64,000 bases of DNA from a virus (IMGVR_UViG_3300046777_002658:32001-96000), one strand, 5' to 3'. Positions 27,359 through 59,322 are shown, numbered from the stretch's first letter. Notes: generated by a model from the letters alone, not told the origin. Made by a program: numbers and translations.

Positions 27359-27418
27359 TTGAAAACTACAGCCGCGTAGGAAGATTAACCCCCCCTCCCC
27401 TCATATTGAGGGGTTTTT

Positions 27419-41826: not shown

Positions 41827-42054
41827 TAAACTGAGGGGTTCCTCAACCCCTCCTGTCCAGCTTTATTAAACACCATTGACAGAAAGTCCCAATGTCCTGT
41901 ACCCTTAATATAGAAAAAAAGAATAAAGAGTGTAAACACCACTTTGAGAAGCTAGTTTGATATCTTTCACCCCTCAGATATCTGGTGATAACTAGCTTCT
42001 CTTTCTTTAGAAAAAAAGAAGAGTGTTTGCAATATTCTTTAAAGGTTTCAAATC

Positions 42055-42684
42055 ATGTCTTTATTACAATTGTCTCTAGAAGCTGGTGTTCCAAAATTCT
42101 GTGTTGACCAAATTGCTCAAGGTGATGGTCGCATTACTTTTGAGGCATCTGATTTGGAAATGTTGACCTTTAAGGTCTGGAACGTCTATGAGGACACACC
42201 AGGTCAATTCCAGATGATGGTGACCTTCCAAGGTCATTGTCTTGGTGAGTATGAGTTGCAAAGTCTACCTGAAGACCTTCACACCTTAGAGCAGCAGCCT
42301 GGGTATTTTAAACTATCTGGGTATATCCTGGAAGTTGCGGAAGACGTGCCTGCTGAGGTAGCTGCAGCAATGTCTGCTTTTGCTCAATGGAGCAAAGAAA
42401 ACAAGGGTGTCAAAAACCCTGCTAATCGTCCTCACTTATTTTATAAAGTGGCTAGTGCAGAAGCGTTAATTCAGTTAGTTGTGTGTTCTAGCTATAACAA
42501 GTCTACCAAAGTTAACGAGCTCAGCTTTAACGGCTGGGCTTACCAAGGCCTGGAATGGGCTGGAAACGGAATAGGTAGCATCAAAGCTACCAAGACTGGT
42601 ATAAGTGGTTATACCAGAAAGGTGCTGCCTCCAGCACCTGTAGCTCCCCCAGCTCCCCCAGCTCTTACTCTTAAGTCACGATAG
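42055..42684 (+). CDS. Hypothetical protein
   Basis: 209 aa, ATG 44 bp after the class II motif at 42011. Confidence 0.7.
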   Translation: MSLLQLSLEAGVPKFCVDQIAQGDGRITFEASDLEMLTFKVWNVYEDTPGQFQMMVTFQGHCLGEYELQSLPEDLHTLEQQPGYFKLSGYILEVAEDVPAEVAAAMSAFAQWSKENKGVKNPANRPHLFYKVASAEALIQLVVCSSYNKSTKVNELSFNGWAYQGLEWAGNGIGSIKATKTGISGYTRKVLPPAPVAPPAPPALTLKSR

Positions 42685-42880
42685 GGGGTAATAAACCAAT
42701 TGATCTACTAAAGACCAATTGGTTTATTATTATTTTGTTGTACACAGCCCGGCGGGGACTACAGAGCCTCCAGCGATCGCTCTTTGGACAGGTGACAGAG
42801 AGAAAGGGGTGTACATCTAAATCTTCCTTTCTTAGAAAAAAAGAAGAGGGAATGGAATTATTAGTATTAAAGGAACAATC

Positions 42881-43294
42881 ATGACTAACGTATACTTCTT
42901 CTCCCGCCACGAAGCTCAAGAAGCAATGGTATCTGACTTGGGTGGAACTATCACTCAACAGTTCCGAGGCACAATCTCTAATGTTAAGCGTGTTGGTGAC
43001 GGCATTGAGTTCCAAGAGATTCCATTAGGTGAAACAGCTCCTGTGGTACACACAATTCCTGCCGATTCTATAGTCGTTGCTGTAGCTCCTCTGCCTTTAC
43101 AAGAGGCTTGGCTGAGAGCTGGTGTTTCTGTGTTCCTTGCGCCACAGAACAAGCGCGAGACCACAGAGTCTGGTGAAGTAGTTTTTAACTACGCAGGGCT
43201 GTTACAAGTCCTGAAGATTGAAGTAGTAACCCAACAGTGGGTTGGTACTGCTGTTAGTCTAGAGGACAAGCACGCCGAGCGTAGTGCTTTATAA
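42881..43294 (+). CDS. Hypothetical protein
   Basis: 137 aa, AAGGA RBS, 45 bp after a class II motif. Confidence 0.7.
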   Translation: MTNVYFFSRHEAQEAMVSDLGGTITQQFRGTISNVKRVGDGIEFQEIPLGETAPVVHTIPADSIVVAVAPLPLQEAWLRAGVSVFLAPQNKRETTESGEVVFNYAGLLQVLKIEVVTQQWVGTAVSLEDKHAERSAL

Positions 43295-43375
43295 AGAATG
43301 TTGGGAGCGATCGCGCTCTCACTTTCTTTTAAAGAAAAAAAGAATAGTGAGTGGAACTTATTTTTTTAAAAGTAT

Positions 43376-43585
43376 ATGTGGTCAACAACTATATCCAACC
43401 CACCTCTACCAGGATGGGTGCTACCAGATGGTAGCAAAATACTTGAAGTATTTGATGGAGATGTAAACGCCCTCCACCAGGTGTACATGGGTATAGCAAA
43501 GGTTGAATCCCCAACGGGGGAAGTAAGAATTGTGAGGGCTGACTGGTGGGTATCACCGGATGGCTCTCTGTTTATTGAGCTTTGA
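43376..43585 (+). CDS. Hypothetical small protein
   Basis: 69 aa, 41 bp after a class II motif. Confidence 0.55.
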   Translation: MWSTTISNPPLPGWVLPDGSKILEVFDGDVNALHQVYMGIAKVESPTGEVRIVRADWWVSPDGSLFIEL

Positions 43586-43651
43586 ATTTAGTTAACTCAT
43601 TAGAGTATTAACCTAATGAGTTAACTCTTTTTTTTGATATAAAAAAGAATA

Positions 43652-43861
43652 GTGAATGAAATTATTAGTATTAAAGGAACAATCATGACAGAGCAAGAAA
43701 TTTTACAATTGGCTTCTCTTTTAGAAAGAGCCAAACAAGCATTAACCTCTCCCTCAGGCTGTTTGCCTGAGTTCATTTATGTAGAGAAAGGTAAGGGGGA
43801 AATAAAGGGTTACACACCCTATATTGCAAATGGGGGGGCAAACTTTCTTTTCCCTCTCTGA
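43652..43861 (+). CDS. Hypothetical small protein; probable start ATG 43685
   Basis: Leader identical to that of 42881. Confidence 0.55.
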   Translation: MNEIISIKGTIMTEQEILQLASLLERAKQALTSPSGCLPEFIYVEKGKGEIKGYTPYIANGGANFLFPL

Positions 43862-43991
43862 GGAGGGAGAGGTAATTAAAGTAGAATCCGCAATCTACTA
43901 ATATTAATGGTTAAAGAAGAAGAAAAGAATTAACTCCTTCTTTAACCATTAATATTTTTTTTGTAAAAAAAAGAATAGTGGGTGCAATATT

Positions 43992-44192
43992 ATGGAGTTT
44001 TCTATGACTCGCGAAGAAGCTTTAAACACTAACTTAGTGCAAACCGGCGACTACTTCGTCTACAAAGTGGTCCAGGTTAAAGAAACAACAGTAGTTGTAA
44101 CTCCCTACAAGGGGGAGCAGTGGGGTGAGCAGTGGGGTGAGCACAATGAGTACAGGCTAGACAGCCTGTACCCCTACGATGGGGCTTTATAG
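43992..44192 (+). CDS. Hypothetical small protein
   Basis: 66 aa after a class II motif; EQWG repeated. Confidence 0.55.
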   Translation: MEFSMTREEALNTNLVQTGDYFVYKVVQVKETTVVVTPYKGEQWGEQWGEHNEYRLDSLYPYDGAL

Positions 44193-44316
44193 TAACTGGG
44201 GGAAGCAATCCCCTTTTAAGAAAAAAAAGATAAATGAATGAAGTTTGTAACTCTAGGAGTTATCATGACCGCATTTATTTATATTCTCTTAGTTTACTTT
44301 TATCTGTGGGCTATGG

Positions 44317-44559
44317 ATGCCCACACTCGAGATTAAAGGGAAAAAGAAAGTAATGAGAAAAGTAAGTAATTTAGAGTTTAACCTAGCAACCAGCGGACAC
44401 GCCTGGCTGCTGGAATTAGAAGTAAACAACCAGGTAGTAGCCTCCCAGCTACTACTACTTGAGGAGCCGCCGCTCCTCAAACAGCAGAGGGAGTTTCGTG
44501 CGGAACACCCCCTTCAACATGGGGGTGTTGTGAAGTTTCATCCTGTAGTAAGGGAGTAA
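44317..44559 (+). CDS. Hypothetical small protein
   Basis: 80 aa, followed by a hairpin. Confidence 0.45.
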   Translation: MPTLEIKGKKKVMRKVSNLEFNLATSGHAWLLELEVNNQVVASQLLLLEEPPLLKQQREFRAEHPLQHGGVVKFHPVVRE

Positions 44560-44623
44560 CTTTGATTGCCTATCTAATCTCTGGATAGGCAATCGCGCTC
44601 TCTTTCAAAGAAAAAAAAGAATA

Positions 44624-44977
44624 GTGGATGGAATTGTCACACCAAAACTTACAATGAGAAAAACATCAGAAGAGTTGAAAGAAATAAGAAAACAGAAGAG
44701 AATAGCAGCCTGTCAAGCTGCTATAGAAAAATATAACAGGTTGGACAAACCTGTTTATGCTTACACCACAAGTTGTGGTGACCCGTGGGTTCCAGAAAAG
44801 GAAGTTGCCCTTCCCCTATATTGGGAGGAGGAACACAAGGAACTAAAGTTTTACACAGATTTTCTGTGGGGGATACTCAATGCTATTAACTATGAAATCC
44901 CTGACTGTGATTCTTCAACAGTAGTATTTAGGGAAAGAGGGGAGGGGGGAAAGATTGAAGAAATTATAACGGAGTGA
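44624..44977 (+). CDS. Hypothetical protein; probable start ATG 44654
   Basis: ATG 43 bp after a class II motif. Confidence 0.6.
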   Translation: MDGIVTPKLTMRKTSEELKEIRKQKRIAACQAAIEKYNRLDKPVYAYTTSCGDPWVPEKEVALPLYWEEEHKELKFYTDFLWGILNAINYEIPDCDSSTVVFRERGEGGKIEEIITE

Positions 44978-45058
44978 AGGAGGGGCTGGCGCGGGCTGGC
45001 TCTTTTTCTTCAAAAAAAGATAAGTGAATGAAATAATATTTTCTAAGGAGAAGCAATC

Positions 45059-45592
45059 ATGGCTATTTTAAACTTTAGAGGTCACACACAAGAAGTAGAG
45101 ACTCTTAACAACCAAGAGTTCACTGCTCCCGTTGTTAGAGTAGTAAACTCCAACAGTTACTGGTATAGAGCTTACTTAGAAGATGGCAGTATAGTTCAGT
45201 TCATACTTCCCCAAGTAGAAGACAGTTTTAAGTTTATAAACTGTCTTTTAAAATATAAAGGACATGAACTTCATGTCCTTCTCAAAGAGGAAGAGTTTCC
45301 TGACTCTTCGATAGTCTCCATCTCCTTTACTAAAAGATACTGCAAAGCAGTATATAAAAATGGAGAGGCAGTGGAGTTTAGGTTTTTCAAGTACGAAGAT
45401 TCTATCCCGTTTAGGGATAACTTTCCGCTTGAAAAATACAAAGCAGCCCTAGCTGCAAAAACAATGGTTGAGCAGGCTATCTTTGAATACCAAAAGGAGA
45501 TGGAAAAACTAGGAGCCGTGAACTGCTATGACTCGACAGAGTCGTGGTTAGAGATAGAAGATATTCCAGACTATGAGTGGAATCTCTTTTAA
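45059..45592 (+). CDS. Hypothetical protein
   Basis: 177 aa, AGGAG RBS, after a class II motif. Confidence 0.7.
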   Translation: MAILNFRGHTQEVETLNNQEFTAPVVRVVNSNSYWYRAYLEDGSIVQFILPQVEDSFKFINCLLKYKGHELHVLLKEEEFPDSSIVSISFTKRYCKAVYKNGEAVEFRFFKYEDSIPFRDNFPLEKYKAALAAKTMVEQAIFEYQKEMEKLGAVNCYDSTESWLEIEDIPDYEWNLF

Positions 45593-45702
45593 TCTGCGGA
45601 GTGCTGCAAGAACACCTTTTCTACCTATCTTCCATCACCAAGATAGGTAGAAGGCTTCCAGCCCTTTAAAGAAAAAAGATAAGTGAATGATAAGAAGAAG
45701 CA

Positions 45703-45963
45703 ATGATGTATAAACCTACAGCTTTTGAGAATGTAACTTATACATATACAGGTTATGACCTTGATGGTCAGCCTGTATATCAAAACGAACAGGGGGAGAG
45801 AACAACCCCCGAAGCTTTAATAGAGCAAGGGGCAACTGTGCCTCTTGGCAACACTGTTGTTCTAAAAGAACAACATGATGTCTGTGTCTACTGCGGCACA
45901 GACAACGGGCTCCACGGGGTTAGGAGGAGAGGCTACGAATGCTGCTCCTGCGGCAGTGCTTAA
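45703..45963 (+). CDS. Small zinc-ribbon protein
   Basis: CVYCG...CCSCGS C-terminal Cys pairs. Confidence 0.6.
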   Translation: MMYKPTAFENVTYTYTGYDLDGQPVYQNEQGERTTPEALIEQGATVPLGNTVVLKEQHDVCVYCGTDNGLHGVRRRGYECCSCGSA

Positions 45964-46005
45964 CCTCCCCTCCCTCTAACTCAACGTAAGGTAAAGGAAG
46001 AAATA

Positions 46006-46257
46006 ATGAACACTATCCGCGTGAAAGAAGAAAATTTATCATCTATTGTTCAAGGTTTACAAGAAGCTGGCTTTTCAGCCAAGGCTTCTAAATGCACCCC
46101 TCTGAGTCAGTGGGAGCATGATCAAAACTCTGATTATGACTTCGAGCATTGGACGTTCAATTCCCTCATTGGTATGAGGGGTATTGAAACCAATGCAAGT
46201 GGGAAGCAAGCCCACAAAGTCATTAAAGCCCTCAAAAAGGAGGGCAAAGCAAAATAA
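46006..46257 (+). CDS. Hypothetical small protein
   Basis: 83 aa, AAGGA RBS. Confidence 0.6.
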   Translation: MNTIRVKEENLSSIVQGLQEAGFSAKASKCTPLSQWEHDQNSDYDFEHWTFNSLIGMRGIETNASGKQAHKVIKALKKEGKAK

Positions 46258-46368
46258 TAAACATTGATTAGGGTTTAGGTAGTAGTTAGACCTCTTTAAC
46301 TACTACCTAAACCTTATTCTTTAGAAAAAAAAAGAATAGTGAGTGGAACTTATTAGTAAATTACAGCC

Positions 46369-47196
46369 ATGTCCATCAAGATAAAATTTCCCCAATTCTC
46401 ACACCACTCAGATGGCACTGTTTGGGTGCACCTTGATGGTGTGTATTGGCTAGACAAAAGTAACGAAAGATGGTTTGTATCGGGGGTTCACCCCCAAGGT
46501 ACCAACAGCCTTAGTTCTTGCAAAGGAGAGGTTGCCTCTCCGTTTTTCTTCAACCAGGAAACTGAAGAAGCTTTCCCTCTTTTCTTAGCTGCTATTGCGG
46601 CTAAGAAAGCAGAATTAAAAGCTTTCTCCCTCCAGACAGAGGGGATGGATAAGTTAGAAGCCATTAAGTTGGCAAGGGAACAGTTTGACATGAGTCTCAA
46701 AGAAGCCAAGGAATTGGTAGAAGGGTGCCCCAGAACTCGCTACTCTGTCACACCTCTCCCCGTAGAAGTTTTTCGGGTTGAGGAAAGCAACCACCCTACC
46801 GCAGAGGAGGATCAACTCTGCAGCGTGAAGGGTCTCTGGAGTGGGAAGATGACCCTTCCAGCTTCTCTACTGGCACAAGTAGAGGAACTGATTGATTGGC
46901 AAGAGCCGTTGCTTTCTGCAGACTTCGAGCCCTCCTTAGTCCAACTGTTGGACACAGGAGAATGCGTTGGAGAGACTGAAAAACTACTCCTGCGCTTCAA
47001 AGTTGATACAGAGGAGGAAACCACAAGCCTCTGTAGTTGGAAAATACGTGAAGAAGGAAAAGATTTGGCTCCTGACTTTTCCTGCCTGCGGGTAACCACG
47101 CTCGATGCAGCACCAGCCTTGTACTCTATGTACTTGGCAGGGAAAGCAGATGAAGCTGAACGTTGGAAACAGCGTTTAGCCCTATTAATCAAATAG
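46369..47196 (+). CDS. Protein containing a ribosomal bL12 C-terminal-like motif
   Basis: DKLEAIKLAREQFDMSLKEAKELVEGCP resembles the bL12 segment [27 protein letters not shown]. Confidence 0.55.
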   Translation: MSIKIKFPQFSHHSDGTVWVHLDGVYWLDKSNERWFVSGVHPQGTNSLSSCKGEVASPFFFNQETEEAFPLFLAAIAAKKAELKAFSLQTEGMDKLEAIKLAREQFDMSLKEAKELVEGCPRTRYSVTPLPVEVFRVEESNHPTAEEDQLCSVKGLWSGKMTLPASLLAQVEELIDWQEPLLSADFEPSLVQLLDTGECVGETEKLLLRFKVDTEEETTSLCSWKIREEGKDLAPDFSCLRVTTLDAAPALYSMYLAGKADEAERWKQRLALLIK

Positions 47197-47262
47197 ATAT
47201 TAAGGGGAGGGGGGGGCTATCCCCCTTTTTCTTATAAAAAAGATAAGTCAGGGAGAAAGTCA

Positions 47263-47484
47263 ATGAGGCTGAACAAGAATAAACAACCTTCCCATATTGA
47301 GAAAGTGTTATCAGCTTTAGAAAGTCAGACTCATGGTGCTACAAGAGAGCACTTGAGAGTAATAACTGACCTTCCTAATGATGTTGTTGAAAGAAGATTA
47401 AAAGAGCTCGTTGAGCAAGGAGAGGTTGAGTTAATCAAACGCCCGGGCAGGAAAGGCTACCTTTATCTTAAAAAAGAAGAGTGA
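47263..47484 (+). CDS. Small winged-helix DNA-binding protein
   Basis: GATREHLRVITDLPNDVVERRLKELVEQGEVELIKRPGRKGYLY fits a wHTH. Confidence 0.6.
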   Translation: MRLNKNKQPSHIEKVLSALESQTHGATREHLRVITDLPNDVVERRLKELVEQGEVELIKRPGRKGYLYLKKEE

Positions 47485-47511
47485 AGGGAATTTTGTTAAA
47501 GAGAGGGAAGC

Positions 47512-47763
47512 ATGGAAATAGTAGTAATTCTAAAGAAAATTGGCAAGCACAGCGAAGTGCAGCCAATAGTATTCTTTGACCCAGCAGAGGGTCATAAATA
47601 CTGGGAAGAGATTAAAGCAGACTTCTTACGGGACGAAGACAGTCGTTATTACGACTGTGAGCTCTGGCAAGGAAAGCCAGACTCTCTGAGAAGGATAGAA
47701 TACTTACAGGGGGCTTATAACATTAAAAGACTGGTCAACCTATCAAGGCAACCAGTCTTTTAA
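47512..47763 (+). CDS. Hypothetical small protein
   Basis: 83 aa, 42 bp after a class II motif. Confidence 0.6.
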   Translation: MEIVVILKKIGKHSEVQPIVFFDPAEGHKYWEEIKADFLRDEDSRYYDCELWQGKPDSLRRIEYLQGAYNIKRLVNLSRQPVF

Positions 47764-47784
47764 TTTAAAAAAGTATAGAGTAGC

Positions 47785-48597
47785 TTACAGGGCAAAGCTC
47801 TCTTCTAAGGAAAGCAGCCGGCGCAGTCTTATGATTTCTTGATTAGATTCTTGAAGCATTACTCTTTCACTCTTAAAATGCTTGCATCTAAGGCGCAGTC
47901 TTATGATTTCTTGATTAGATTCTTGAAGCTTATCACTAAGTTCTTCTAGTTTATATGTTAGCTCATCAACCTTCTTTTCCAACTGAGCATAGGTTGGCTT
48001 GCTAGTCCTTTCTTGTTGAGCAGCTAGTTCTTCTCTCTCTTTAAAGTAGAGATGATGATCTAGTTCTTTAAGGTTATAGCCTGCTTCCCTCTTTTTAATG
48101 CCCCAAGTGATAATCTTGAGAGTAATCTGCAGTCTATAGCAAGCTTCGCTTTCTTGTAGCTTTAAGTCTTCTACTATATCCCAATTTTCTGCCAGCCTCA
48201 TGTAGTTCCAAGCCTGCGATCGCTTCAGACTAGCATTAGAGTTCTTACCATAAAAGGTTTGAAGATAGTGCTCAAAAGAGTTAAACACCCCTATGTCTGA
48301 GACAATAGGTTTCTCTTTTGAAGCACCCCGCAGAGCTTCTCTTATCTTTATCAGAAACTCACCAGAGTTCTTATAGTGAGTAAGGCTTTTAAAGCGATAG
48401 CTCTGGGATGTCTCATAAGCTTCCTTAGCAACTAGAAGTTCATTCATGCTGGCATTGTGATAAGATAGTAGGTATACGGAAGGCACCGGCTCATCCATAA
48501 ATTCTAACTCTTCGATGAAAAAGTCGTTCGTATCAATCATAATAAACCTTTGGTACTTTTGATAGGTAGTCCATTTCGCTGGACTACCTATTTCCAT
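47785..48597 (-). CDS. DUF3102-like putative DNA-binding coiled-coil protein (paralog of 54488-55123); probable start ATG 48540
   Basis: SQAWNYMRLAENWDIVEDLKL...ELDHHLYF shared with the paralog; 38-bp direct repeat at 47820-47857 and 47892-47929. Confidence 0.55.
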   Translation of the reverse strand: MEIGSPAKWTTYQKYQRFIMIDTNDFFIEELEFMDEPVPSVYLLSYHNASMNELLVAKEAYETSQSYRFKSLTHYKNSGEFLIKIREALRGASKEKPIVSDIGVFNSFEHYLQTFYGKNSNASLKRSQAWNYMRLAENWDIVEDLKLQESEACYRLQITLKIITWGIKKREAGYNLKELDHHLYFKEREELAAQQERTSKPTYAQLEKKVDELTYKLEELSDKLQESNQEIIRLRLRCKHFKSERVMLQESNQEIIRLRRLLSLEESFAL

Positions 48598-49563
48598 ATT
48601 AACAGCTTATTAGCAGAAGTGTGTGCGATCGCTCTTTCAAAGAAAAAAAGAAGAGTGAGTGAAGTTATTTGTTGTTTAAGGGGGATTACCGTGGAATTAC
48701 TTAAAAGAAAATTTGAGAGCTTTGAAGATGCTAACTACTGGGTAGCTGGCTTGTCTAAAGCCATCAACACTACCTATATTCCTAGTGGTAATAGCATAGA
48801 GGAAGTGTATGCTTCCTTCCTGAAGATACAACTGGGTCGGAGCTTCAACCATAACTGTGGGTTTGGCTCTGCTAACCTTGAGATGGTATTCAACGAGGGT
48901 GCCATGACCTTTCACTACTCCAGCACGTCTGGTACGTATGTCTTCTTGCAGTATTGCTTCTCCGACAAGATGGAGTTTAAGGGTGGAAGCGTCGAGTGTT
49001 CCATACCAGACCACAGAGTAGGCGGACAGCACTATGAGTTAATCACTCAACTCATCTATGACTACAAGTGGTCTAAAGATGGTGAGGTAGTTGTTCCCTT
49101 AGAGCTAATAAGCTTGAACCCTGAAGGTACAGAGTTTCCAACTCCTACTTGGGTTCTGGATGACTTAGCTAACCGAAGAGCTCAGAACAACCCAGAAGAG
49201 CGGGATGCTCAACTGCTGGAGTTTGGTTACACTCCTGTAGCTAAACCTATAGGCTTTGAGAGAGCCTGGGAGAATCCTAACCCTGAAGTCTATTATCCTT
49301 ATATAGTTCTCTCTGAGCAGTACAGTCATAACAGCAAGAACTACTTCATTCTGAGGGAGGGTAGTTGTGTGGAGCGTGACTACTCTGTCTCCTATAGGAG
49401 ACTACTGGAGATTCTGGCTGAACCTCCTAAAGAGAGCCGCCGAGCTCGCAGGACTAGAAGGTCAAAGTCAGAGGAAGTGGTAGAAGTAGAAGTAGAAGAC
49501 TACGACTACGACTACGACTACAACTATGAAGAGTCTGAATACACTGACGAGGATGAGAGTTAA
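48550..49563 (+). CDS. Hypothetical protein with acidic tail; probable start GTG 48691
   Basis: GTG 48 bp after a class II motif; (DY)n acidic C-terminus. Confidence 0.65.
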   Translation: MVLLIGSPFRWTTYFHINSLLAEVCAIALSKKKRRVSEVICCLRGITVELLKRKFESFEDANYWVAGLSKAINTTYIPSGNSIEEVYASFLKIQLGRSFNHNCGFGSANLEMVFNEGAMTFHYSSTSGTYVFLQYCFSDKMEFKGGSVECSIPDHRVGGQHYELITQLIYDYKWSKDGEVVVPLELISLNPEGTEFPTPTWVLDDLANRRAQNNPEERDAQLLEFGYTPVAKPIGFERAWENPNPEVYYPYIVLSEQYSHNSKNYFILREGSCVERDYSVSYRRLLEILAEPPKESRRARRTRRSKSEEVVEVEVEDYDYDYDYNYEESEYTDEDES

Positions 49564-49626
49564 GGTAAGGAGGGGGCATCAAGCCCCCCTTTTCTTAAGG
49601 AAAAAAGAATAGAGTGTGTATAAACT

Positions 49627-50148
49627 ATGCTTGTGAAAAGAGAAATGATTGAACAATTAAAGCTAACTCTTCCTGTACATCTGTATGGTGTAGGTAAAGC
49701 TAAGTCTTTTGAAGGGCTCCTGAAAGAAATAGAAGACGGGGAGACCCAGATGGTCTTTGAAAACGACCTGCCAGTCAGACTAATCCAGGTTGCTAGAGTA
49801 TATGTCTTCCACAAAGACCAACAGCTTGTAGAAAGCAAGCAGACCATCAAGGGTCAGGGAGATAGACTCAGAAACCTTGAATGTGTTTCTGAGAAGTTTA
49901 AGTTATCAGAGTCTGCTCTAGATGCAGCGTGTCGTGGCATTCAGGAGGAGTTGGGAGTGAGCGTGTCATATTCTGAATTACAGTTTTTAGGTAAAAAGAC
50001 AGGGGAGCGGGTGAGTCCCAGCTATCCAGGATTGATGACCCGGTATGATTTCTTTGACTTCAAGTGGGATATGCCAGAACGGCTTTACAAGTCTGAAGGG
50101 TATATAGCTGACGAAGGGGATTGTATAACCTTTTTTAACTGGAAGTAG
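49627..50148 (+). CDS. Nudix-fold hydrolase-like protein
   Basis: ESALDAACRGIQEELGV is a degenerate Nudix box. Confidence 0.6.
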   Translation: MLVKREMIEQLKLTLPVHLYGVGKAKSFEGLLKEIEDGETQMVFENDLPVRLIQVARVYVFHKDQQLVESKQTIKGQGDRLRNLECVSEKFKLSESALDAACRGIQEELGVSVSYSELQFLGKKTGERVSPSYPGLMTRYDFFDFKWDMPERLYKSEGYIADEGDCITFFNWK

Positions 50149-50196
50149 GCGGAAGGGGCTTGATGCCCCTTTTCTTAAAGAAAAAAAGAATAGCGT

Positions 50197-50661
50197 ATGA
50201 AAGTGTTTACCACTATTAATCCTATGAACGTTACCTACGAACTCACCCTCCTAAACTCAATAGTAACCAACCAAGCTAAGGAGCTAGAGCTCCTTAGACA
50301 ACAGATAGAAGAAATGTCTACACCAAAGTCTCATGACTACAGTAAGTGTTGGAAGACAAAGGATGGCAAATTGCTCTCCTACTGTGAGATGACCGACTAC
50401 CACTTGTTCTGTGCTATCCAGAAAGTGTGGTCTACAAGTCCATCAGTAGCTCCTCTGTTAAAAGAGGCACAAGCTAGATGGCACAGCATCCTTATTGACG
50501 AGACAGACAAAAACAGAAGTTGTTTAGAGTTTAGTGGAGACTTTAGAATCTCAGACCTTTTGTCAACAGAATACGTTTTCTCTCCTTTAAGAAGGAAAGC
50601 TATCTTGCTGGCTTATAAAAGCCTAAGGCAAGCCGGGGTGGATGTGGCTTTGACTATCTAG
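50197..50661 (+). CDS. Hypothetical protein
   Basis: 154 aa after a class II motif; WKTKDGKLLSYCEMTDYHL segment. Confidence 0.65.
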   Translation: MKVFTTINPMNVTYELTLLNSIVTNQAKELELLRQQIEEMSTPKSHDYSKCWKTKDGKLLSYCEMTDYHLFCAIQKVWSTSPSVAPLLKEAQARWHSILIDETDKNRSCLEFSGDFRISDLLSTEYVFSPLRRKAILLAYKSLRQAGVDVALTI

Positions 50662-50727
50662 AAGCGGTGTAGGTAGAGGGTTTACGCTCACCTACTCTTA
50701 ACCTTTTCCTTTCTAGTAAATTGTAAA

Positions 50728-50991
50728 ATGACAACAACTTATAAGCTATGCCAAGCAGTTGGCACTTACAGCATTGACTCTTACTTGCATGAGTCAATCA
50801 AGCTCAATCCTGGTAAACCTCATTACCTGAGGGTGAGCCTGACATCCACTGCCTATAGAAATGTAGTGACAGTGATTAGAGTTAAAGTAGATTCTATGAA
50901 GAGTCTACATGGGAAAATCATTAACTTGAGAGCACTATACCAAAAGAAATGGGGTGTCCCCCCGGATGAGGTGGTAGTAAGCCGGGGTTAG
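50728..50991 (+). CDS. Hypothetical small protein
   Basis: 87-aa co-oriented ORF. Confidence 0.55.
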   Translation: MTTTYKLCQAVGTYSIDSYLHESIKLNPGKPHYLRVSLTSTAYRNVVTVIRVKVDSMKSLHGKIINLRALYQKKWGVPPDEVVVSRG

Positions 50992-51049
50992 TGACGAACA
51001 GTTCGTCAAGAGAGCATTAAGCCTCTCTTCATGGAAAAAAGAATAGTGG

Positions 51050-51610
51050 GTGAGTTTCAAGTACACAACTGCTGCAGCAGTTTTAACCATGCCTTATATT
51101 CATATCAAGATATCAGACAACGTGGCAGCTCTCCTAGAGGAAGCTAGATCCACTGGTAGTGGATTTGAGTTCAAGTCCAACTTACATGGGTTAGACATAC
51201 AGGTCAGCCCAGGAGTAAAACCTACCCTCACAGGTTCTTTCAGCAACTTTAAGGTTGTTGCCGAACCACAAATAGTAGTAGAGGACAGAGTGCTCATAGA
51301 ACAACCTCCAGAACAACCACAACCCTCTAACGTTGTTTCTATCAAGCTACCTCACAGCAAAGAAGCAGAAATAGAGAATCGCAGGAATCTGTTAGTAGCT
51401 TTACTACAGAGGGGTTACCGACCAGGTATGACTCAAGCAGAAATAAGGGAGCTAATGCTCCAAGACTGCGGGGTTGAGTGTTCAGTTACTACTGTAAACA
51501 ATGATCTTAATGAACTCAAGAAAAGAGGCACAATCACCTCTTATACCGAGCGGGGCGTGGGCATAGTTTATAAAGTAGTGGAGCCCCCAACTAAAGCTTT
51601 ACCTTTTTAG
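51050..51610 (+). CDS. Protein with C-terminal winged HTH; probable start ATG 51089
   Basis: MTQAEIRELM...CSVTTVNNDLNELKKRGTI resembles DeoR/ArgR-type wHTH. Confidence 0.6.
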   Translation: MSFKYTTAAAVLTMPYIHIKISDNVAALLEEARSTGSGFEFKSNLHGLDIQVSPGVKPTLTGSFSNFKVVAEPQIVVEDRVLIEQPPEQPQPSNVVSIKLPHSKEAEIENRRNLLVALLQRGYRPGMTQAEIRELMLQDCGVECSVTTVNNDLNELKKRGTITSYTERGVGIVYKVVEPPTKALPF

Positions 51611-51808
51611 GGTAATCAAGGGAGTGTAACAGCTCCCTATCTCTTTAAAAGAAAAAAAGAATAGGGAATGAGTATAAAACTCTCTCTGTGTACTGGGTAG
51701 TTATTTCAGAAATAACTACCCATTTTTTATATCATCTGCTGATCGTTTTTATAAGAAAAAAGAATAGTGGATGAATTAGTAAACACTCAACAATCTTTAA
51801 GGTAAAAA

Positions 51809-52558
51809 ATGACTACTAACACAAGCACCGCTTCCTCTTCCTCTTTAGACCAAGCTGAATACTCTCCGCTAGAATTTGTAGCTATGCTACAGAACGATCC
51901 TCAAAGGGCACACTTGGTACATCAAATTCCAGAGATATTCTTTCAGCAGGCAAAGGCAAACTGCTCAACGTTCATAATCACCCCCGATATGATTGCTGAC
52001 CGTCTGCTGAACATTCAAGTAGCAGAACCCTTAGTGGAAGGAGACTCAGCAGTCAACATCAAACTGCGCCTTGTAGCTAGAGTAGATGAGCACTTCAACT
52101 TTATTCCTTTAGCCAAACAGGGTGAAGCTGATGAAAACGAGGACATTCCTTCAGCTTGGCTAAAAGGATTCAACTCTACTTTTATATCTTTAAACAACTC
52201 TTCTGTTAAAGCAGGACTTTTAACAGACAGAGAGTTGAAGTCTCTTGTAAACCACGCTGAGTTTTACGAGACCATTCCATTGGATGAAACAGGTCTCAGG
52301 TCTGCTTACTACAAAGACCCAAAGTACAAAAAAAACAAAATGAACCTCTCTGGAGTAGAAGGAGCAGAGGGTCAGTTCCAGTTCTTAATGGAAGTAAGAC
52401 AAAAAGGTAATAATGCCGGGGAGGAAACTCTTGGCATTGTTGTTAAGTTCTGGACTCCGGGAGCGTTTAAGTTCCTCGGTGGTGGTAATGCACGGGTAGT
52501 CTCCCTTAATGCTGTAACACCTGCCACTGGTTGGACATATAAATCTGCTAAGAAATAA
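51809..52558 (+). CDS. Hypothetical protein
   Basis: 249 aa, AAGGT RBS, after a class II motif; no family recognised. Confidence 0.7.
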   Translation: MTTNTSTASSSSLDQAEYSPLEFVAMLQNDPQRAHLVHQIPEIFFQQAKANCSTFIITPDMIADRLLNIQVAEPLVEGDSAVNIKLRLVARVDEHFNFIPLAKQGEADENEDIPSAWLKGFNSTFISLNNSSVKAGLLTDRELKSLVNHAEFYETIPLDETGLRSAYYKDPKYKKNKMNLSGVEGAEGQFQFLMEVRQKGNNAGEETLGIVVKFWTPGAFKFLGGGNARVVSLNAVTPATGWTYKSAKK

Positions 52559-52678
52559 TCCTGTTAGACCTGGTTCACTAAACCAGGTCTGACTTTCTTT
52601 CTTCTCTCTCAACTAACTCTTTTAAATAAGAAAAAAGAACAGAGAAGGATTACCTTATAAGTACCAAAGGCAAATCCC

Positions 52679-53302
52679 ATGTCTGATCGAATCTTGCATC
52701 GTGGTTGGGTTAAGTCTATACGTGAGCTCAAGTCCCATAAAGTAGAGCTTGCTATCAAGTCTAAGTACCCAGCCATCCCTATTATAGGTCTGTTAGCAGT
52801 CCACCTAGCAGTAGAGTGGTTCAGACCAACTGACTGTGTTGAATACAGAAGAGCATCGGAGTTAAAAGACGAAAAGCTAGGTCAGAGCTTTGATGACTTA
52901 ACTGTAGAGTTAGTCATTCCGGTGCTAGAGAGACTGGCTGGTGATCGCTGGTTGGTATGGTTTCCTAATGTAGAAGTAGAGCTTTCAACAGCTCCTACAG
53001 AGATAACTATAGAGCATGACAACCTGGAGTTAAAGTACAAGTGGAGTAAGTACAAACAAGACTATCTTCGCACTGCTAAACCAGAGCTGGGGGGGCGCAT
53101 CCTGTTCTTCCCACCTAGTGAGGTTTCCTTACACTCTATCTTAGAGCAGCCAGCTCAACTGGGAGCTAACGTGGCTGACATTCCTTTTGTGTACCCAAGT
53201 GATGATGAAGAGGACATAGCTAGGAATGCTGAGAGAGAGGAAAAAGACTACTTCTCCAGAGAGATTAGTGCGACAGAGGCTTGGGAGTTAGTGCGCTCTT
53301 AG
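52679..53302 (+). CDS. Hypothetical protein
   Basis: 207 aa, 48 bp after a class II variant. Confidence 0.65.
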   Translation: MSDRILHRGWVKSIRELKSHKVELAIKSKYPAIPIIGLLAVHLAVEWFRPTDCVEYRRASELKDEKLGQSFDDLTVELVIPVLERLAGDRWLVWFPNVEVELSTAPTEITIEHDNLELKYKWSKYKQDYLRTAKPELGGRILFFPPSEVSLHSILEQPAQLGANVADIPFVYPSDDEEDIARNAEREEKDYFSREISATEAWELVRS

Positions 53303-53336
53303 TGGGGTACACTAAATCTAGTAAATCTAGAGAGCT

Positions 53337-53696
53337 ATGCACCCCATAAAGATAATAGGGTTGTTATTTGCAGCCCTAACCACTCCAGCCCTTGCTTGGG
53401 TGAGTGTCGGTCTAGGCAGTGGTGTTTACCCATTAGTGAAGCATTCTGCCTACCCCGCTCCAGGAACTTATACTCTCAAAACCAAAGTATTAGGGTTCTG
53501 CGGGGGTAAAGATTATATAACGTTCTCCTACAAATTCTCGAAGGAGAACTGTGTGGTTGTCTTCTTGTCAGATGATGAAAGGTTGAGAGTAGAAGACCCT
53601 CGCAACTTGTTAACCCACCAAGACCAGAAAGGTCAAGCCACCCTAGCAGTTGATGGGTTTAACAGACCCACATTGGTGGGGTGGAGTAATGAGTGA
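53337..53696 (+). CDS. Putative exported protein
   Basis: MHPIKIIGLLFAALTTPALA-W resembles a Sec signal peptide with an AxA cleavage site. Confidence 0.55.
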   Translation: MHPIKIIGLLFAALTTPALAWVSVGLGSGVYPLVKHSAYPAPGTYTLKTKVLGFCGGKDYITFSYKFSKENCVVVFLSDDERLRVEDPRNLLTHQDQKGQATLAVDGFNRPTLVGWSNE

Positions 53697-54174
53697 GGAG
53701 CAACCGCCATCCACTAGAGAAAGTATAGTAAGGTGCTGCTTTGGTATGTTCTTACTTACTGTCAGTCTGCATGGTGTAGCAGGTGAGTTTCCCAACCCAC
53801 TACCAACTCTAGCAAGTGACTGGATGCCAAAGCCCATAGAACAACCTAGAATAGGGTTCTACAAGTACATCAAAGTCCTCGGCTCAGGTGATCGCTATTA
53901 CCTTCTCAACCTAAATACAGATAGGGGAGTTGTCAAGAACGTTAGAGCAACTTTAATGCCGGGTAGCTACTGGAAGAATGTTACTATTAACTCAGAAGGT
54001 AGAGTAACCCGTAAGGAGCTATCAAAGTCTAGAGACACAGGCTGCCTTGAGAGGGCTGTTATTATGCGAAGGTCTGGCATAGTAAGCGTAGGTGGTATAC
54101 AAGTGACTGACGCGCAAGGGAACTTCTACGGGAATGTTGATTTAGTTAATTGTGAGAAGAAGGAAGTGGAGTAA
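53650..54174 (+). CDS. Putative exported or membrane-anchored protein
   Basis: Hydrophobic N-terminal segment CCFGMFLLTVSLHGVAG. Confidence 0.5.
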   Translation: MMGLTDPHWWGGVMSEEQPPSTRESIVRCCFGMFLLTVSLHGVAGEFPNPLPTLASDWMPKPIEQPRIGFYKYIKVLGSGDRYYLLNLNTDRGVVKNVRATLMPGSYWKNVTINSEGRVTRKELSKSRDTGCLERAVIMRRSGIVSVGGIQVTDAQGNFYGNVDLVNCEKKEVE

Positions 54175-54412
54175 CACTATGAAAATAACAGTCAGCATAG
54201 AGATTGATGCAGAAGACGCTGGACACCTTATTGCTTTTGCTCACTTGTTATCAGATTGGGAGGAAGCAATAGACAATCAGATGGATGATGTTCTGAAAGC
54301 TTTCTGTTATGCCTCAGACCATCTAGTAGGTATAGAGAATAAAGAGATAGAAATGAAATGTAGTGAGCAGCAAGCTAACAGGTACAAGAAGCTTTTAGAG
54401 AAGTTAAGGTAA
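54152..54412 (+). CDS. Hypothetical small protein; probable start ATG 54179
   Basis: Coupled to the upstream gene; followed by a hairpin at about 54420-54452. Confidence 0.55.
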   Translation: MRRRKWSNTMKITVSIEIDAEDAGHLIAFAHLLSDWEEAIDNQMDDVLKAFCYASDHLVGIENKEIEMKCSEQQANRYKKLLEKLR

Positions 54413-54487
54413 AGGGAAGGGGGCTGGTTATTTCATTAATAACCAGCCCCCTTCAGCCCCGCCTTGCTTGCCCTAAAAGAAAAAAGA

Positions 54488-55123
54488 TTATGAGTTTTTC
54501 AAACAGAGTTCAGCCTTGAGTCTGTCATTCTCCAACATTAGATGTTGGTTCTTCTCTGTTACGTCCTGTAAGAGAGCTCTCAATGCACTAACCTCTATTT
54601 GTAACTCTTTCTTTGAAGGTACTTTAGGGTCGGGCTCTCCCTTACCTCTTTTCTCATCAAAATAAAGATGGTGGTCTAACTCTTTGAGATCGTAACCTTG
54701 CGACCGCTTCTCAAGTCCCCATCTAATGATATCCATAGTGATCTCAAGCCGATAAGCTGCATTTTCCTCCATGAGCTTTAGCTCTTCAACTACGTCCCAG
54801 TTCTCAGCCAGCTTGATATACTTGTATATCTGAGTTTTCTTCAAGCCAGACTCATAAGACTGATGTTCGCGCAGGAAGTGGTCAAAGGAAGTAAACTCTC
54901 CCATATCCGAAGAGACTGGGTGTAGCTTACTTGCTCCAGCAAGACTGTTTTTAATGTGAAGAAATTCAACCCCACAGTCTTTGTACATCACTAAGCTTTT
55001 CTTACGATGCTTTTGAGAAGTGCTATACTCCTTCTGTCCTTCTAGCCAGTTATTCATACCTTGTTTGTAGTATACTGAAAGAAGGACTTGCTCTCCTGGA
55101 AAAGAAAACTGATTAGCTGTCAT
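54488..55123 (-). CDS. DUF3102-like putative DNA-binding protein (paralog of 47785-48597)
   Basis: TQIYKYIKLAENWDVVEELKL...ELDHHLYF. Confidence 0.6.
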   Translation of the reverse strand: MTANQFSFPGEQVLLSVYYKQGMNNWLEGQKEYSTSQKHRKKSLVMYKDCGVEFLHIKNSLAGASKLHPVSSDMGEFTSFDHFLREHQSYESGLKKTQIYKYIKLAENWDVVEELKLMEENAAYRLEITMDIIRWGLEKRSQGYDLKELDHHLYFDEKRGKGEPDPKVPSKKELQIEVSALRALLQDVTEKNQHLMLENDRLKAELCLKNS

Positions 55124-55257
55124 AGCTCTAAGTTAATAAGGTTTACTATTAGTCGTTTAGTTGTTTAGTAAAAAAAAATAACTGAACGACTATTTCAATA
55201 GTAACTCTTTTCCACAAGAAAAAAGAATAGTGAGAGTAATCAAGTGAGAGACCAGCC

Positions 55258-56013: not shown

Positions 56014-56063
56014 AGTTAAGAGGGAGGCAACTCTCTACCCTAGTAACCAACTCATGAGATAGT

Positions 56064-57239
56064 TTGTGTAACTCTGCTGGTAAGAAAAAAAGCCAAAAGA
56101 GAGGATTCCTCACACAAATTACTATGAGCATTCACTTTCTAGTTACCTTTAGCTTATTCTGCTGGGTAGTCTTACACCTAGCTAGGCATTCTTTGATAAC
56201 TCCTTATATAGCCGGGGGAGCAGCCATGACTCTGTGTTCCTACTTTCAAACCAAAGCAGTAGTCTTTCTGGTTGCCGTAGTCCTTGCCTACTTCACTGTT
56301 TATCTCCTGAATGAGGATGTAGACCCCAACCAACTGTTAGTAAGAGATAGAGAGAGTGCGGCTGCCCTGACAGAGGAGATAGGTGGCAACATTAAAGTAG
56401 TGAAAGTAGTGACTTTGCTACTGTTCTGCTTCCTACCAATCCCCAGCCCTCCTGGTTTTATTACAGGAATACTCCCAGTAGTGATTATCTCTTTGCTGAT
56501 ATTCCTCAACAAGGATGCAGGGAAAGGCAACCTGGTAGGTTATCTGGTTTTGGTTATGGGAGCAGTAGGAGGAGCCAGTTTTACTCTATGGTTAGTCAAA
56601 ACCTTCCTACCAATCCAAGTGAGTGTAATACCAATATTAACCGGGCTGGCTATCCCTTCCTTGCTGGGCTGTGACCCACCACCTACCAAGAGCTTGAGAG
56701 AAAGAGGGTTGAACTCCCCACCAGGGATAAACAACATTCTGTGGACATTCCTGCTCACTTGGGTAACACCAGGTTTATCTCTGAGTGCTACCACGTCTGC
56801 GCTCATAGCTCCTGGTGCTTACAGGTTAGTAATTGCTAACCTAACTTCTGTAGCTATAGAAGGCTGGAATCTAGGTCTGTTGTTTAGGGATGGGAGTTCT
56901 ACTAAAACTCCTCTAGGAGACTTATTACTCAGACCAGACCGCTGGTATCAAACCCCAACCTTGCAAGTTTCAGGAGCGGGGCTGGACCACCTGTTCTTTG
57001 TAGTCCTGCTGGGAGTAATGCCAGCGGTCGCAATGTACCTCTGGTGTAACTCAAAGTTTGAGCCAGACCCTTCCATAATCATTGTGGTGATGCTATTGCA
57101 GTCTGCCGTGATAGCAGGTTGGTCATCCTTAGTTTTAGTACCTCTGGGATTTGGGTTTGCTATATTGCAGATGGCGTTGATGCCAAACTATTCAGAGATT
57201 AGAAGCTTGACTATCATGGCTCCAATGCTTGTACCTTAA
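56064..57239 (+). CDS. Polytopic membrane protein, possibly TctA/DUF112-like; probable start ATG 56124
   Basis: About 10 hydrophobic segments; ILTGLAIPSLL and TPGLSLSA recall TctA-type proteins. Membrane protein is clear, family is tentative. Confidence 0.5.
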   Translation: MCNSAGKKKSQKRGFLTQITMSIHFLVTFSLFCWVVLHLARHSLITPYIAGGAAMTLCSYFQTKAVVFLVAVVLAYFTVYLLNEDVDPNQLLVRDRESAAALTEEIGGNIKVVKVVTLLLFCFLPIPSPPGFITGILPVVIISLLIFLNKDAGKGNLVGYLVLVMGAVGGASFTLWLVKTFLPIQVSVIPILTGLAIPSLLGCDPPPTKSLRERGLNSPPGINNILWTFLLTWVTPGLSLSATTSALIAPGAYRLVIANLTSVAIEGWNLGLLFRDGSSTKTPLGDLLLRPDRWYQTPTLQVSGAGLDHLFFVVLLGVMPAVAMYLWCNSKFEPDPSIIIVVMLLQSAVIAGWSSLVLVPLGFGFAILQMALMPNYSEIRSLTIMAPMLVP

Positions 57240-57313
57240 AGGAGATTGTATGACTGAAGTAACAAGAGTTAATAAATCACTGATGATTTTAGAAAACAAA
57301 GGAGCGCAGCAGT

Positions 57314-57812
57314 ATGAGTATTAAATGGATTCTAGTTGATGCTAACAATCTACCAGAGGATGAGGTAATAGCTATTGATAAAGAAGGGCACATAGTGGTA
57401 GGATTCTTTATGCCCTCTTCACGCTCTTATTCCCCCCCCTCATCAACTTGTTGTTGCAGTACAAGATGATGAAGGGAGAGTGGTGAAAGATGTACACTCC
57501 TTCATACCTATGAAACATCTAACAAAGCTATGGAGAGAACAAAACCAGGTAGTACCAAATTACTACTCCAAAAAGAGTAAAGCTTACGAGATTCTCTCGT
57601 GGCATATGGAAGAGGGTGTGCTGAAAGAACCTTGGAACTCTGGACTACTAGAGTGTCCTTTAAAGGCTACTAAGCTTATAAGGTGTTTAGCCAATTCTAT
57701 GGTTCTTAACTACTTCATTTACCCATCCAAAGCAAAGCTAATAGCTGGCGATACGCAAATAATGGATGAGCTTGTCTACTGGCTAAAAGAATACATTGCT
57801 GCTAATAAGTAA
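57314..57812 (+). pseudogene. Frameshifted paralog of 55258-56013, split at a C8 tract (57432-57439)
   Basis: ATG 57314 gives MSIKWILVDANNLPEDEVIAI and stops at 57475; removing one C joins it to the 57480-57812 frame (QDDEG...ELVYWLKEYIA). Confidence 0.65.
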
Positions 57813-57930
57813 AATAAAGAGGGCTGCCCCTCTTTATTTCTATAAGCTATAACCTCCCAATCACATTACAATAACTCTCCACCACAGAACTAGCAGTAAA
57901 CGCTTCCAGAGAGTTGTTAAAGAAAAAACA

Positions 57931-58188
57931 GTGACCTTTACAGCAGAAAATTTTGTAGAAATGGAAAAAGCAAAACTAAAAAGCGGGACTGGCTATTCTT
58001 CTAAAAAGACTTTCTATTACCATGTCTGTAAAGGAGAAGACCAAGAGATTACTTTTAACCAAGAGGATTTAGGAGAGGCAGTAGAGTTAAGCAACATCTA
58101 TTCCAATCTTGGAGACTTTGAAGAAGAGCCTTCTCTTAAAGATGTAATAGAAAGACTATTAGAGCTAGAAAGAGGCTATGAAAGTTAG
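57931..58188 (+). CDS. Hypothetical small acidic protein
   Basis: 85-aa co-oriented ORF. Confidence 0.5.
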   Translation: MTFTAENFVEMEKAKLKSGTGYSSKKTFYYHVCKGEDQEITFNQEDLGEAVELSNIYSNLGDFEEEPSLKDVIERLLELERGYES

Positions 58189-58375
58189 AGGAGTCTAACA
58201 TTTAAAGAATGGATGGAGCAAGAAAAAAGAACAAAGAAAGTATATCAACAGAGAGCTCAAACAAGCTCTCCTTTTCATTTTTAAAAAAGATAAGGTGCAC
58301 TACTACAATGATCTAATTAAAAGCTACACAGTCAATCACTAACAAAGCAAATGATAAAGAAAATAACAAACAAAG

Positions 58376-58798: not shown

Positions 58799-59293
58799 CA
58801 AAAGTTTTTCTCTGGCTTTAGACAGCCGAAACAAACAACCAATGCACAACATCCCTTCCTTCCTTGCATAACTTTAGTCTTACCTGCAAAGCCAACAAGC
58901 TTTAGACATGACAAATCACCCTCAAGTTCAAGTGACTTTAAGAGTGTCTAAACCAAGCTAGTTGGCTGCTCTGCTATTGATGGTAATTTACTGAATCATG
59001 TCTTCAGCGGGAGACTAAAAGTGGCCTTGGCTCTCACCCAGCGTCACTCGACTGTTAGATAAGTTGACCCTTGAACTGTCATGCACTTGGTCTCCGCCTG
59101 CAATGTTAAGGTGGTCTGTCTATCTACTCTTATTGTACCCTGATTAACAAAAAGAAAGAAATAATTTCTAAAAAAGTTTGACAGCCGACCTCAAAACACA
59201 ACTTTATTATTTCTTAACAATCTCTGTAAAGCCTGCTGCGTAAGAGTTTGAGAGGTTAGATAAAAAATATTTAGAAATTCTTTGGAAAAACAC

Positions 59294-59322
59294 TTGTCAT
59301 TATTGTTTTATTACTGTATGAT
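59294..59322 (+). promoter_or_regulatory. Host sigma70-type promoter TTGTCA-N17-TATGAT
   Basis: One mismatch per box, 17-bp spacer, AT-rich upstream sequence, intergenic. Confidence 0.55.

Follow-up and report, generated by a model that had tools for sequence, protein, structure and literature searches.

Promoters private to a phage-encoded RNA polymerase (RNAP), together with cassettes of terminators and such promoters flanking early genes, are elements of a kind already known from T7, N4, phiKZ, AR9 and P23-45. The virion RNAP of N4 (Schitoviridae) is a T7-like single-subunit enzyme, the promoters of which are DNA hairpins with conserved stem-loop. Non-virion RNAPs of phiKZ and AR9 have a two-barrel core split into four to five subunits, are independent of the host enzyme and use promoters that are not of the sigma-70 type. 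In P23-45, virion and non-virion polymerases each use their own motif (PMC10770324): gp96, a virion RNAP fused to the tape measure protein, acts at AT-rich promoters, and gp64, the non-virion RNAP, at GC-rich ones (Chaban et al. 2024, PMC10770324). Pre-early genes, that of the non-virion RNAP among them, are transcribed by the virion enzyme; the non-virion RNAP then uses a motif of its own to serve early genes and some middle ones (PMC10770324). Early transcripts dependent on gp66 of phi14:2, which is a crAss-like phage, were found to share no common upstream motif (bioRxiv 10.1101/2020.03.07.982082). Here we describe an A-tract motif in IMGVR_UViG_3300046777_002658:32001-96000, a stretch of 64,000 nucleotides (hereafter the window; positions refer to it unless stated otherwise) that represents bases 32001-96000 of a 196,877-bp uncultured virus record (CheckV: 94% complete). 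The motif precedes small early genes downstream of the gene for a 3918-amino-acid protein (giant 2) with a predicted RNAP core. We estimate the probability that it is the promoter of a phage-encoded RNAP at about 0.65.

The form of the motif found before the small early genes, class E, consists of a T-run followed by AAAGAAAAAAAGAATAGTGRRTGRAAT. Its consensus, AAAAAAGA[AT][TAG]AGTGRRTGRAAT, comprises 22 bases, among which positions A1-A6, G7, A8, A11, G12, G14 and G18 are near-invariant. The fuller conserved block, (T-run)..AAAGA-AAAAAAGA[AT][TAG]AG[TG]G[AG][AG]TG[AG]AAT, spans about -8 to +20, and information is absent beyond +22 and before about -12. A search for AAAAAAGANNAGTG with up to two mismatches gave 47 matches in the window versus 19.9 +/- 5.3 in shuffled sequences, none of 100 shuffles reaching 47. 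Exact AAAAAAGANNAGTG occurs 13 times in forward and never in reverse orientation in the whole genome, always at 42012-55219. A position weight matrix (PWM) was trained on 20 copies (leave-one-out scores of 17-31 bits). Scanning the genome with it revealed 21 strong sites with at least 20.9 bits, all on the plus strand and within 13.3 kb (41915-55219), plus a second subclass elsewhere. Two weak copies at 58223 and 58283, both on the plus strand, follow the strong set. The preliminary description of the window, made before this analysis, had counted about 23 copies; this number agrees with 21 strong and two weak ones, and the consensus it proposed holds as well.

When both subclasses are taken together, the loose core AAAAAAGA[AT]NA[AG][ATG]G is found 37 times in forward and not once in reverse orientation in 196,877 bp, and the earlier claim that all copies lie on the plus strand holds. 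First-order Markov simulations averaged 0.63 matches, with never more than 3. The motif is thus conserved, co-oriented with genes and present far above chance, as is expected of a promoter used by a phage RNAP. Among 2.9 million IMG/VR contigs, with the own record and its near relatives left out, the strict pattern was matched only by 24 singletons, which represent chance matches.

Class E copies are intergenic and have the same direction as genes. The first one starts 89 nt past the stop codon of giant 2 (41826), that is, right after this gene, as the preliminary description had it. Counted from the first A of AAAAAAGA, the median distance to the start codon is ~43 nt, and about 14 of 21 copies have their most plausible start at 37-48 nt. 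The tight spacing claimed previously applies to these 14 copies; the remaining ones have a start codon at 26-34 or 53-54 nt, or no open reading frame (ORF) at all. Genes preceded by class E encode small proteins without any Pfam or PHROG family and would form about 21 monocistronic or short units, in line with the proposal that nearly every early gene has its own candidate promoter.

The 55 nt upstream of the motif fold to -11 kcal/mol or lower in 14 of 21 copies, compared with 26% of random sites, and these hairpins finish in a T-run. Terminator-like sites are enriched in the region (42 versus 15.5 +/- 4.1 expected). Because of these hairpins and the enrichment of terminator-like sites, upstream transcripts should stop just before the motif. 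No sigma-70 element is found in register: TAnnnT and TTG each occur in at most three of 21 copies at any fixed offset, and sigma-70-like pairs in the region are not enriched (34 versus 27.4 +/- 4.6 expected). A sigma-70-type promoter was rejected for want of -35/-10 hexamers in register, in line with the earlier remark that no copy is a -35/-10 pair. An N4-type hairpin promoter was also rejected, given that the conserved block lacks self-complementarity and that the upstream hairpins, which differ from copy to copy in length as well as sequence, precede T-runs.

All individual copies listed here are on the plus strand. The first (41915-41936; AAAAAAGAATAAAGAGTGTAAA, 23.9 bits) is followed by a long hairpin with T-run and then by the copy at 42012-42033, located 43 nt from ATG 42055 and present at the orthologous place in three relatives (L010, L012 and L013). 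Further downstream, copies are found at 42837-42858 (44 nt from ATG 42881), 43336-43357 (40 nt from ATG 43376, with an upstream hairpin containing HIP1 and a T-run), 43641-43662 (44 nt from ATG 43685), 43967-43988 (ATG at 25 or 37 nt) and 44223-44244, the last one preceded by a terminator, GGGGAAGCAATCCCC-TTTT. They continue at 44613-44634 (41 nt from ATG 44654), 45013-45034 (46 nt from ATG 45059, with AGGAG as ribosome-binding site), 45672-45693 (31 nt from ATG 45703) and 46328-46349, which has a 20-bp hairpin upstream and ATG 46369 at 41 nt. The 275-amino-acid early protein encoded at 46369-47196 contains a stretch that resembles ribosomal protein L7/L12 in its C-terminal domain (Pfam, E 3e-6, slightly above the cut-off). 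A weaker copy (20.9 bits) at 47236-47257 lies 27 nt from ATG 47263, and the following ones are situated at 47470-47491 (42 nt from ATG 47512), 48644-48665 (47 nt from GTG 48691), 49601-49622 (behind a terminator, GGGGGCATCAAGCCCCC-CTTTT), 50182-50203 (candidate ATG at +42) and 51035-51056 (candidate ATG at +54). The copy at 51653-51674 has no ORF and is followed by a 13-bp hairpin and T6 (51694-51728), so that it may give rise to a small RNA of about 70 nt. The last three are at 51756-51777 (53 nt from ATG 51809), 52631-52652 (21.8 bits; 48 nt from ATG 52679) and 55219-55240, the latter in a divergent intergenic region 39 nt from ATG 55258. Two units, 41915-42011 and 51653-51728, are without ORF; each is headed by an A-tract and ended by hairpin and T-run just before the next copy. 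Judged from sequence, they are candidates for small RNAs of about 70-95 nt.

The second subclass, class M, was not noticed in the preliminary description. It has the form GCAAGAAAAAAGAAYAAAGAA.G and is represented by 17 copies on the plus and none on the minus strand. The core is shared with class E; the T-run and a hairpin enrichment of class E size are missing. Genes preceded by class M encode rIIA, clamp loader, replicative helicase, thymidylate synthase, primase and RNase H and are spread over more than 100 kb. This position before rIIA and replication genes fits a soluble enzyme made after infection. Blocks of structural genes on the minus strand contain neither class E nor class M copies. 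Class M-type copies in the window, all on the plus strand, are situated at 58223-58244 (GCAAGAAAAAAGAACAAAGAAAG; the RNase H gene follows at 58376), 59567-59588 (48 nt from ATG 59615) and 60089-60110 (detected by the PWM scan). The weak copy at 58283-58304 (AAAAAAGATAAGGTGCAC) is preceded by a hairpin and T-run. Copies had been said to end before 59294; a TTGTCA-17-TATGAT match does exist there, but the variant subclass continues genome-wide on the plus strand.

A class M-like copy at 5290 (plus strand) is located between two structural genes of the minus strand, with no plus-strand gene for 764 nt, and may be either a chance match or an antisense promoter. Matches at 30847 and 31027 were not counted as promoters, as they are part of a 180-bp coding repeat of giant 2 (KKKEQREE; GCAAGAAAAAAGAACAGAGAGAGGAAATCTTTGTTCA) that mimics class M. 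Intragenic matches of this sort also occur in L012 and L013.

Giant 2, encoded immediately upstream of the class E region (30070-41826, plus strand), contains an AlkB-like dioxygenase (residues 837-1021), a two-barrel RNAP core (about residues 1965-2750) and a Pif1/Dda-like helicase (residues 3428-3901). The core displays motifs KLRGVIK, NSRAP and GDFDGD. A model of residues 1850-2750, based on 32 homologues, reached a predicted local distance difference test (pLDDT) score of 85.4 and a predicted template modelling (pTM) score of 0.82. In a wide structural search, its top match was QDE-1 (Z 9.2, root mean square deviation 5.3, 324 residues), aligned over model residues 116-901 and thus including both barrels. 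After it ranked the largest subunits of Pol I, Pol II, Pol III and the archaeal, African swine fever virus and vaccinia polymerases (Z 8.4-9.0). Further matches were the non-virion beta-prime-like subunits of AR9 and phiKZ (Z 7.3-7.9), gp62 of P74-26 (Z 7.7) and gp96 of P23-45 (Z 7.0). Residues near-invariant in the 32 homologues are K122, R124, K128, D163, K166, R597, P599 and G640-D-x-D-G.

On the grounds of this modelled fold, we accept giant 2 as a single-chain two-barrel RNAP; the phage would thus encode a polymerase other than that of its host. The label "RNAP-helicase" given earlier to the gene is confirmed. Model residues 1-117 (window about 35617-35967), a domain in front of the first barrel, show a weak alignment to the beta-flap of bacterial RNAP (3tbi_B, Z 5.4; 3woe_A, Z 5.3). 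A beta-like module would be expected at this place of the model. Sequence searches of both giant proteins of this phage (giant 1 is described below) against PDB chains matched only the AlkB and Pif1 parts. When the C-terminal part of giant 2 was used to look for related loci in IMG/VR, only an unrelated helicase locus (L009) was retrieved. The giant 2 family comprises at least 66 cluster representatives, none of them in the isolate phage collection.

Homologues of giant 2 in relatives fall at 79-86%, about 50% and 28-30% identity. Three contigs, L010, L012 and L013, have the same gene order as the window, even though the giants of L012 are only about 50% identical. With a threshold of 18 bits, the PWM matched 14, 17 and 9 sites in L010, L012 and L013, respectively, all on the plus strand. 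They lie within 10 kb downstream of the giant 2 orthologue, except for one match each in the 5' part of this gene in L012 and L013. The information profile of these sites equals that of the window, while flanks and genes diverge. In L050 (about 30% identity), six plus-strand sites of the form (T)AGACAACAAAGRATARDGAATGAC are found downstream of the orthologue, the variant form being ACAACAAAGRATARDGAATGAC. A related motif, ACAAAGGGTAAAGGA, occurs four times on the plus strand downstream of the orthologue in L014. Since L050 and L014 keep only the variant form, the GAATAGTGAATGA 3' half is old and the A6 tract belongs to the window's own clade. In the relatives, the motif is thus inherited together with the polymerase.

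The giant 2 gene itself is preceded by a different motif that is conserved to an equal degree. This class I motif consists of a T-run and ACAGCCGC(TTAG), located 20-27 nt before start codons of giant 2 and of three to four preceding genes. The copy belonging to giant 2 (30043-30050, plus strand) lies 27 nt from its ATG; further ACAGCCGC copies are at 27368, 27429, 27785 and 28640/28654, and also at 58822 and 59181. The motif is conserved in L010, L012, L013, L050 and L014. The position of the tandem pair 28640/28654 is kept in L010, L012 and L013, and a similar pair exists in L014. From its sequence and placement, ACAGCCGC is a candidate pre-early promoter of a type other than sigma-70. Because giant 2 is preceded by ACAGCCGC and not by an A-tract, it should be first transcribed by another enzyme. 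The resulting layout, all on the plus strand, runs from repeats through ACAGCCGC genes including giant 2 to class E and then class M genes.

A candidate for such an enzyme is giant 1 (3920 amino acids; 9425-21187, plus strand), encoded between head and baseplate genes and containing a conserved R.G.P...GDNDGD signature. R.G.P followed about 60 residues later by GD.DGD is kept in giant 1 and in all 13 homologues examined. Homologues with 38-40% identity occur on contigs L024 and L025. The model of giant 1 has a pLDDT of 56, with values below 50 around the DNDGD motif, and is too poor to use. Giant 1 has no match to giant 2 by BLASTP and none to the giant 2 family by hhalign, matches nothing in PDB, Pfam or PHROG and gave no usable ESM Atlas hit. 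DxD[GT]D is found once more, in a 308-amino-acid ORF (genome 109540-110466); no other large ORF is polymerase-like. T7-like RNAP (PF00940) was not matched in the genome, but control genomes gave no match either, and Pfam scans of large ORFs revealed no such domain. Outside the window, the genome contains a gene for a sigma-70-family factor (regions 2, 3 and 4; G000:C1:117453-118535, plus strand), located immediately before a minus-strand structural block (tail fibre genes). Another motif, TAAGCTAG, is located upstream of structural genes at 9351 and, on the minus strand, 2823, as well as at 14 other places of the genome. It lies 74 nt before the giant 1 ATG and 41 and 55 nt before two genes of the minus-strand structural block. 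Since it is compatible with a TAnnnT -10 hexamer, TAAGCTAG could be a late promoter, perhaps one recognised by the phage sigma factor.

Placement, terminators, absence of sigma-70 elements, conservation and the adjacent two-barrel RNAP support the idea, put forward in the preliminary description, that the A-tract motif is the cognate promoter of a phage RNAP, and from them we infer promoter activity. As regards the reading enzyme, giant 2 is the likeliest candidate, which we put forward tentatively, at somewhat less than even odds; the layout matches that of P23-45, and for this reason the A-tract family would belong to giant 2. The following course of events can be envisaged. ACAGCCGC promoters would first drive four to five genes including giant 2, read by something present at injection, which might be giant 1, if it is a virion polymerase, or a host enzyme. 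Newly made giant 2 would then initiate at A-tract promoters of both classes. With each class E copy placed right behind the preceding gene's terminator, orphan early genes would be transcribed in units that are monocistronic or short. Transcription probably starts at or just past the conserved block, which would leave a leader of about 20-25 nt with a ribosome-binding site.

Several observations weigh against this interpretation. The structural matches reach moderate Z scores (7-9), and Foldseek with the giant 2 model gave no match with E <= 0.001, though RNAP beta-prime chains head the list. The T-run before class E is present even without an adjoining hairpin (51756, 52631, 55219), and terminator and promoter are for this reason not cleanly separable. 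With the full sigma-70-family factor that it encodes, the phage might in principle employ the host polymerase. Searches by DNA and protein found no close relative among isolate phages. In P23-45, finally, it is the virion enzyme that owns the strongly conserved AT-rich motif, present in many copies in a short early region (PMC10770324), and by analogy of pattern class E could belong to giant 1.

That the A-tract is read by giant 1, brought in by the virion like the tape-measure-fused polymerase of P23-45 or the virion RNAP of N4, with class E genes as immediate-early ones, is nevertheless unlikely in our judgement. The P23-45 parallel just mentioned speaks for it, as do the R.G.P and GD.DGD residues kept throughout the homologues, the location of the gene among structural genes behind the candidate late motif TAAGCTAG, and the nature of class E genes, which are small orphans, each having a single promoter and a single terminator, as is typical of immediate-early genes. 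However, the model of giant 1 is poor (pLDDT 56) and no profile, PDB, Pfam, PHROG or Atlas search links it to polymerases; another enzyme would still be required to read ACAGCCGC and make giant 2; and class M copies are up to about 100 kb away, a poor fit for an enzyme acting on the first-entering DNA. Involvement of host RNAP, either directed by an alternative or phage sigma factor or helped by the A-tract as an UP-like or activator element at a weak core promoter, seems to us quite improbable. A-tracts can serve as UP elements, a sigma factor with regions 2, 3 and 4 is available, and hairpins with T-runs are terminators of bacterial polymerase type. Yet the motif is one contiguous block of ~28 nt rather than two hexamers 16-18 nt apart, with TAnnnT and TTG out of register, and if a -10 element lay downstream of the block, a ribosome-binding site would no longer fit into the 40-48 nt. 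Moreover, the sigma gene lies far downstream near the minus-strand structural block, so that its product would come too late for early genes, and structural genes bear a different motif, TAAGCTAG, which does fit TAnnnT.

The least probable explanation we considered is that the motif is not a promoter at all: it would be a site where a phage regulator binds DNA or RNA, an element of the 5' leader or of RNA processing, or part of a termination signal composed of T-run and A-run. The two runs can indeed pair, for instance at 43336 (CTCACTTTCTTTT with AAAAGAATAGTGAG), and a fixed distance to the start codon would suit a leader element as well. But with terminators directly upstream, the motif would rarely be transcribed from upstream, and class M lacks both the T-run and class E-sized hairpin enrichment. 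The copies at 41915 and 51653 head terminated units without ORF, which suits initiation and not translation control, and the 37-to-0 co-orientation with genes over 165 kb is what promoters predict.

If the preferred reading, a promoter of phage-encoded RNAP, is developed further, a host-independent early programme of three tiers can be drawn for this uncultured clade of myoviruses, which we regard as rather doubtful in its entirety. A polymerase in tape-measure position of a contractile-tailed virion would fire ACAGCCGC. The AlkB-polymerase-helicase fusion would then read one promoter family in early and middle flavours (either a T-run combined with AGTG at positions 12-14 or GCAAG combined with AAAG), with the helicase and repair domain travelling along with the transcribing polymerase. 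Eventually, phage sigma would hand late genes over to the host enzyme.

Further features of the genome concern the virus and its host. The HIP1 palindrome, GCGATCGC, is a signature of cyanobacterial hosts. It is present 34 times in the whole genome versus 1.1 expected, and the previous guess of a cyanobacterial host is reasonable on account of this count. The 6-bp palindromes GCATGC, GCTAGC, GGATCC and GCGCGC have zero copies each in the whole genome (12-28 expected each), and GATC and GGCC are rarer than expected. Together with HIP1, these counts represent a cyanobacterial signature combined with avoidance of restriction sites. Among phage genes are a tail sheath gene and replication genes of the T4-like kind; a Mu-like portal and a Mu-like protease are encoded in relatives. 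Tandem repeats at 25716-25872 (5.3 x 23 bp and 2.5 x 19 bp) separate divergent baseplate/PAAR genes from the first ACAGCCGC gene. A larger repeat array is located at the equivalent place in L024, and contigs L024 and L025 stop at or just past the repeats. An end of the genome or its point of entry may lie here, or else the assembly breaks at this place. About 600 nt without ORF follow the RNase H gene (58800-59414). This stretch, which includes the TTGTCA-17-TATGAT match at 59294 as well as two copies of ACAGCCGA, might be an origin or encode a non-coding RNA. Rfam and tRNA scans of the window gave no match. Beyond the window, intein genes and an insertion sequence-type transposase are located inside the replication region (L051:360-2768, L017:2628-4472, L018:3795-4961); one of the intein genes has a DNA polymerase A exonuclease domain and HNH, another one LAGLIDADG.

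Among described systems, P23-45 resembles this locus in having single-chain two-barrel polymerases encoded by the phage (verified here for giant 2, by fold), two non-sigma-70 motifs that divide neighbouring early regions, the other motif before the gene of the non-virion enzyme, and a giant with DxDGD among tail genes. In contrast to P23-45, there is no detectable sequence similarity, motif sequences are unrelated, and the non-virion enzyme is part of a 3918-residue fusion with AlkB and a Pif1-type helicase. The present phage also differs in its cyanobacterial host signature and tail sheath, giant 1 is only a candidate virion polymerase, and the A-tract family has two subclasses and covers most of the plus strand. 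Similarity to N4 consists in a giant of about 3500-3900 amino acids that would be injected and would transcribe a cluster of small early genes from promoters of its own. Unlike in N4, the block is not self-complementary, the variable upstream hairpins look terminator-like, and the verified polymerase is of the two-barrel type. A large single-chain two-barrel polymerase is shared with phi14:2, the gp66 of which, a virion RNAP that transcribes early genes, was among the weak Foldseek matches; a very strong motif is found here, in contrast to phi14:2. The two-barrel core and the proposed non-sigma-70 promoters and independence of the host enzyme recall phiKZ and AR9, from which the present polymerase differs by having both barrels in one chain that is fused to other enzymes.

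What is new is the motif, its two subclasses, their divergence traceable in relatives and the link to an unstudied AlkB-polymerase-helicase fusion in a clade of phages with cyanobacterial signature. Since an early motif was not found for phi14:2, whose single-chain virion polymerase is the other one that has been studied well, a clear motif for a related class of enzymes has practical value. If our interpretation is true, class E, class M and the distant ACAACAAAG form would represent a specificity series for in vitro work and possibly orthogonal expression tools for cyanobacteria, and the motif classes would let annotators divide the genome into temporal classes. It would also define a promoter-polymerase pair for a family of single-chain two-barrel RNAPs that has no cultured or biochemically studied member. 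The two-polymerase cascade of P23-45 type would then extend from a thermophile siphovirus to large phages with cyanobacterial signature.

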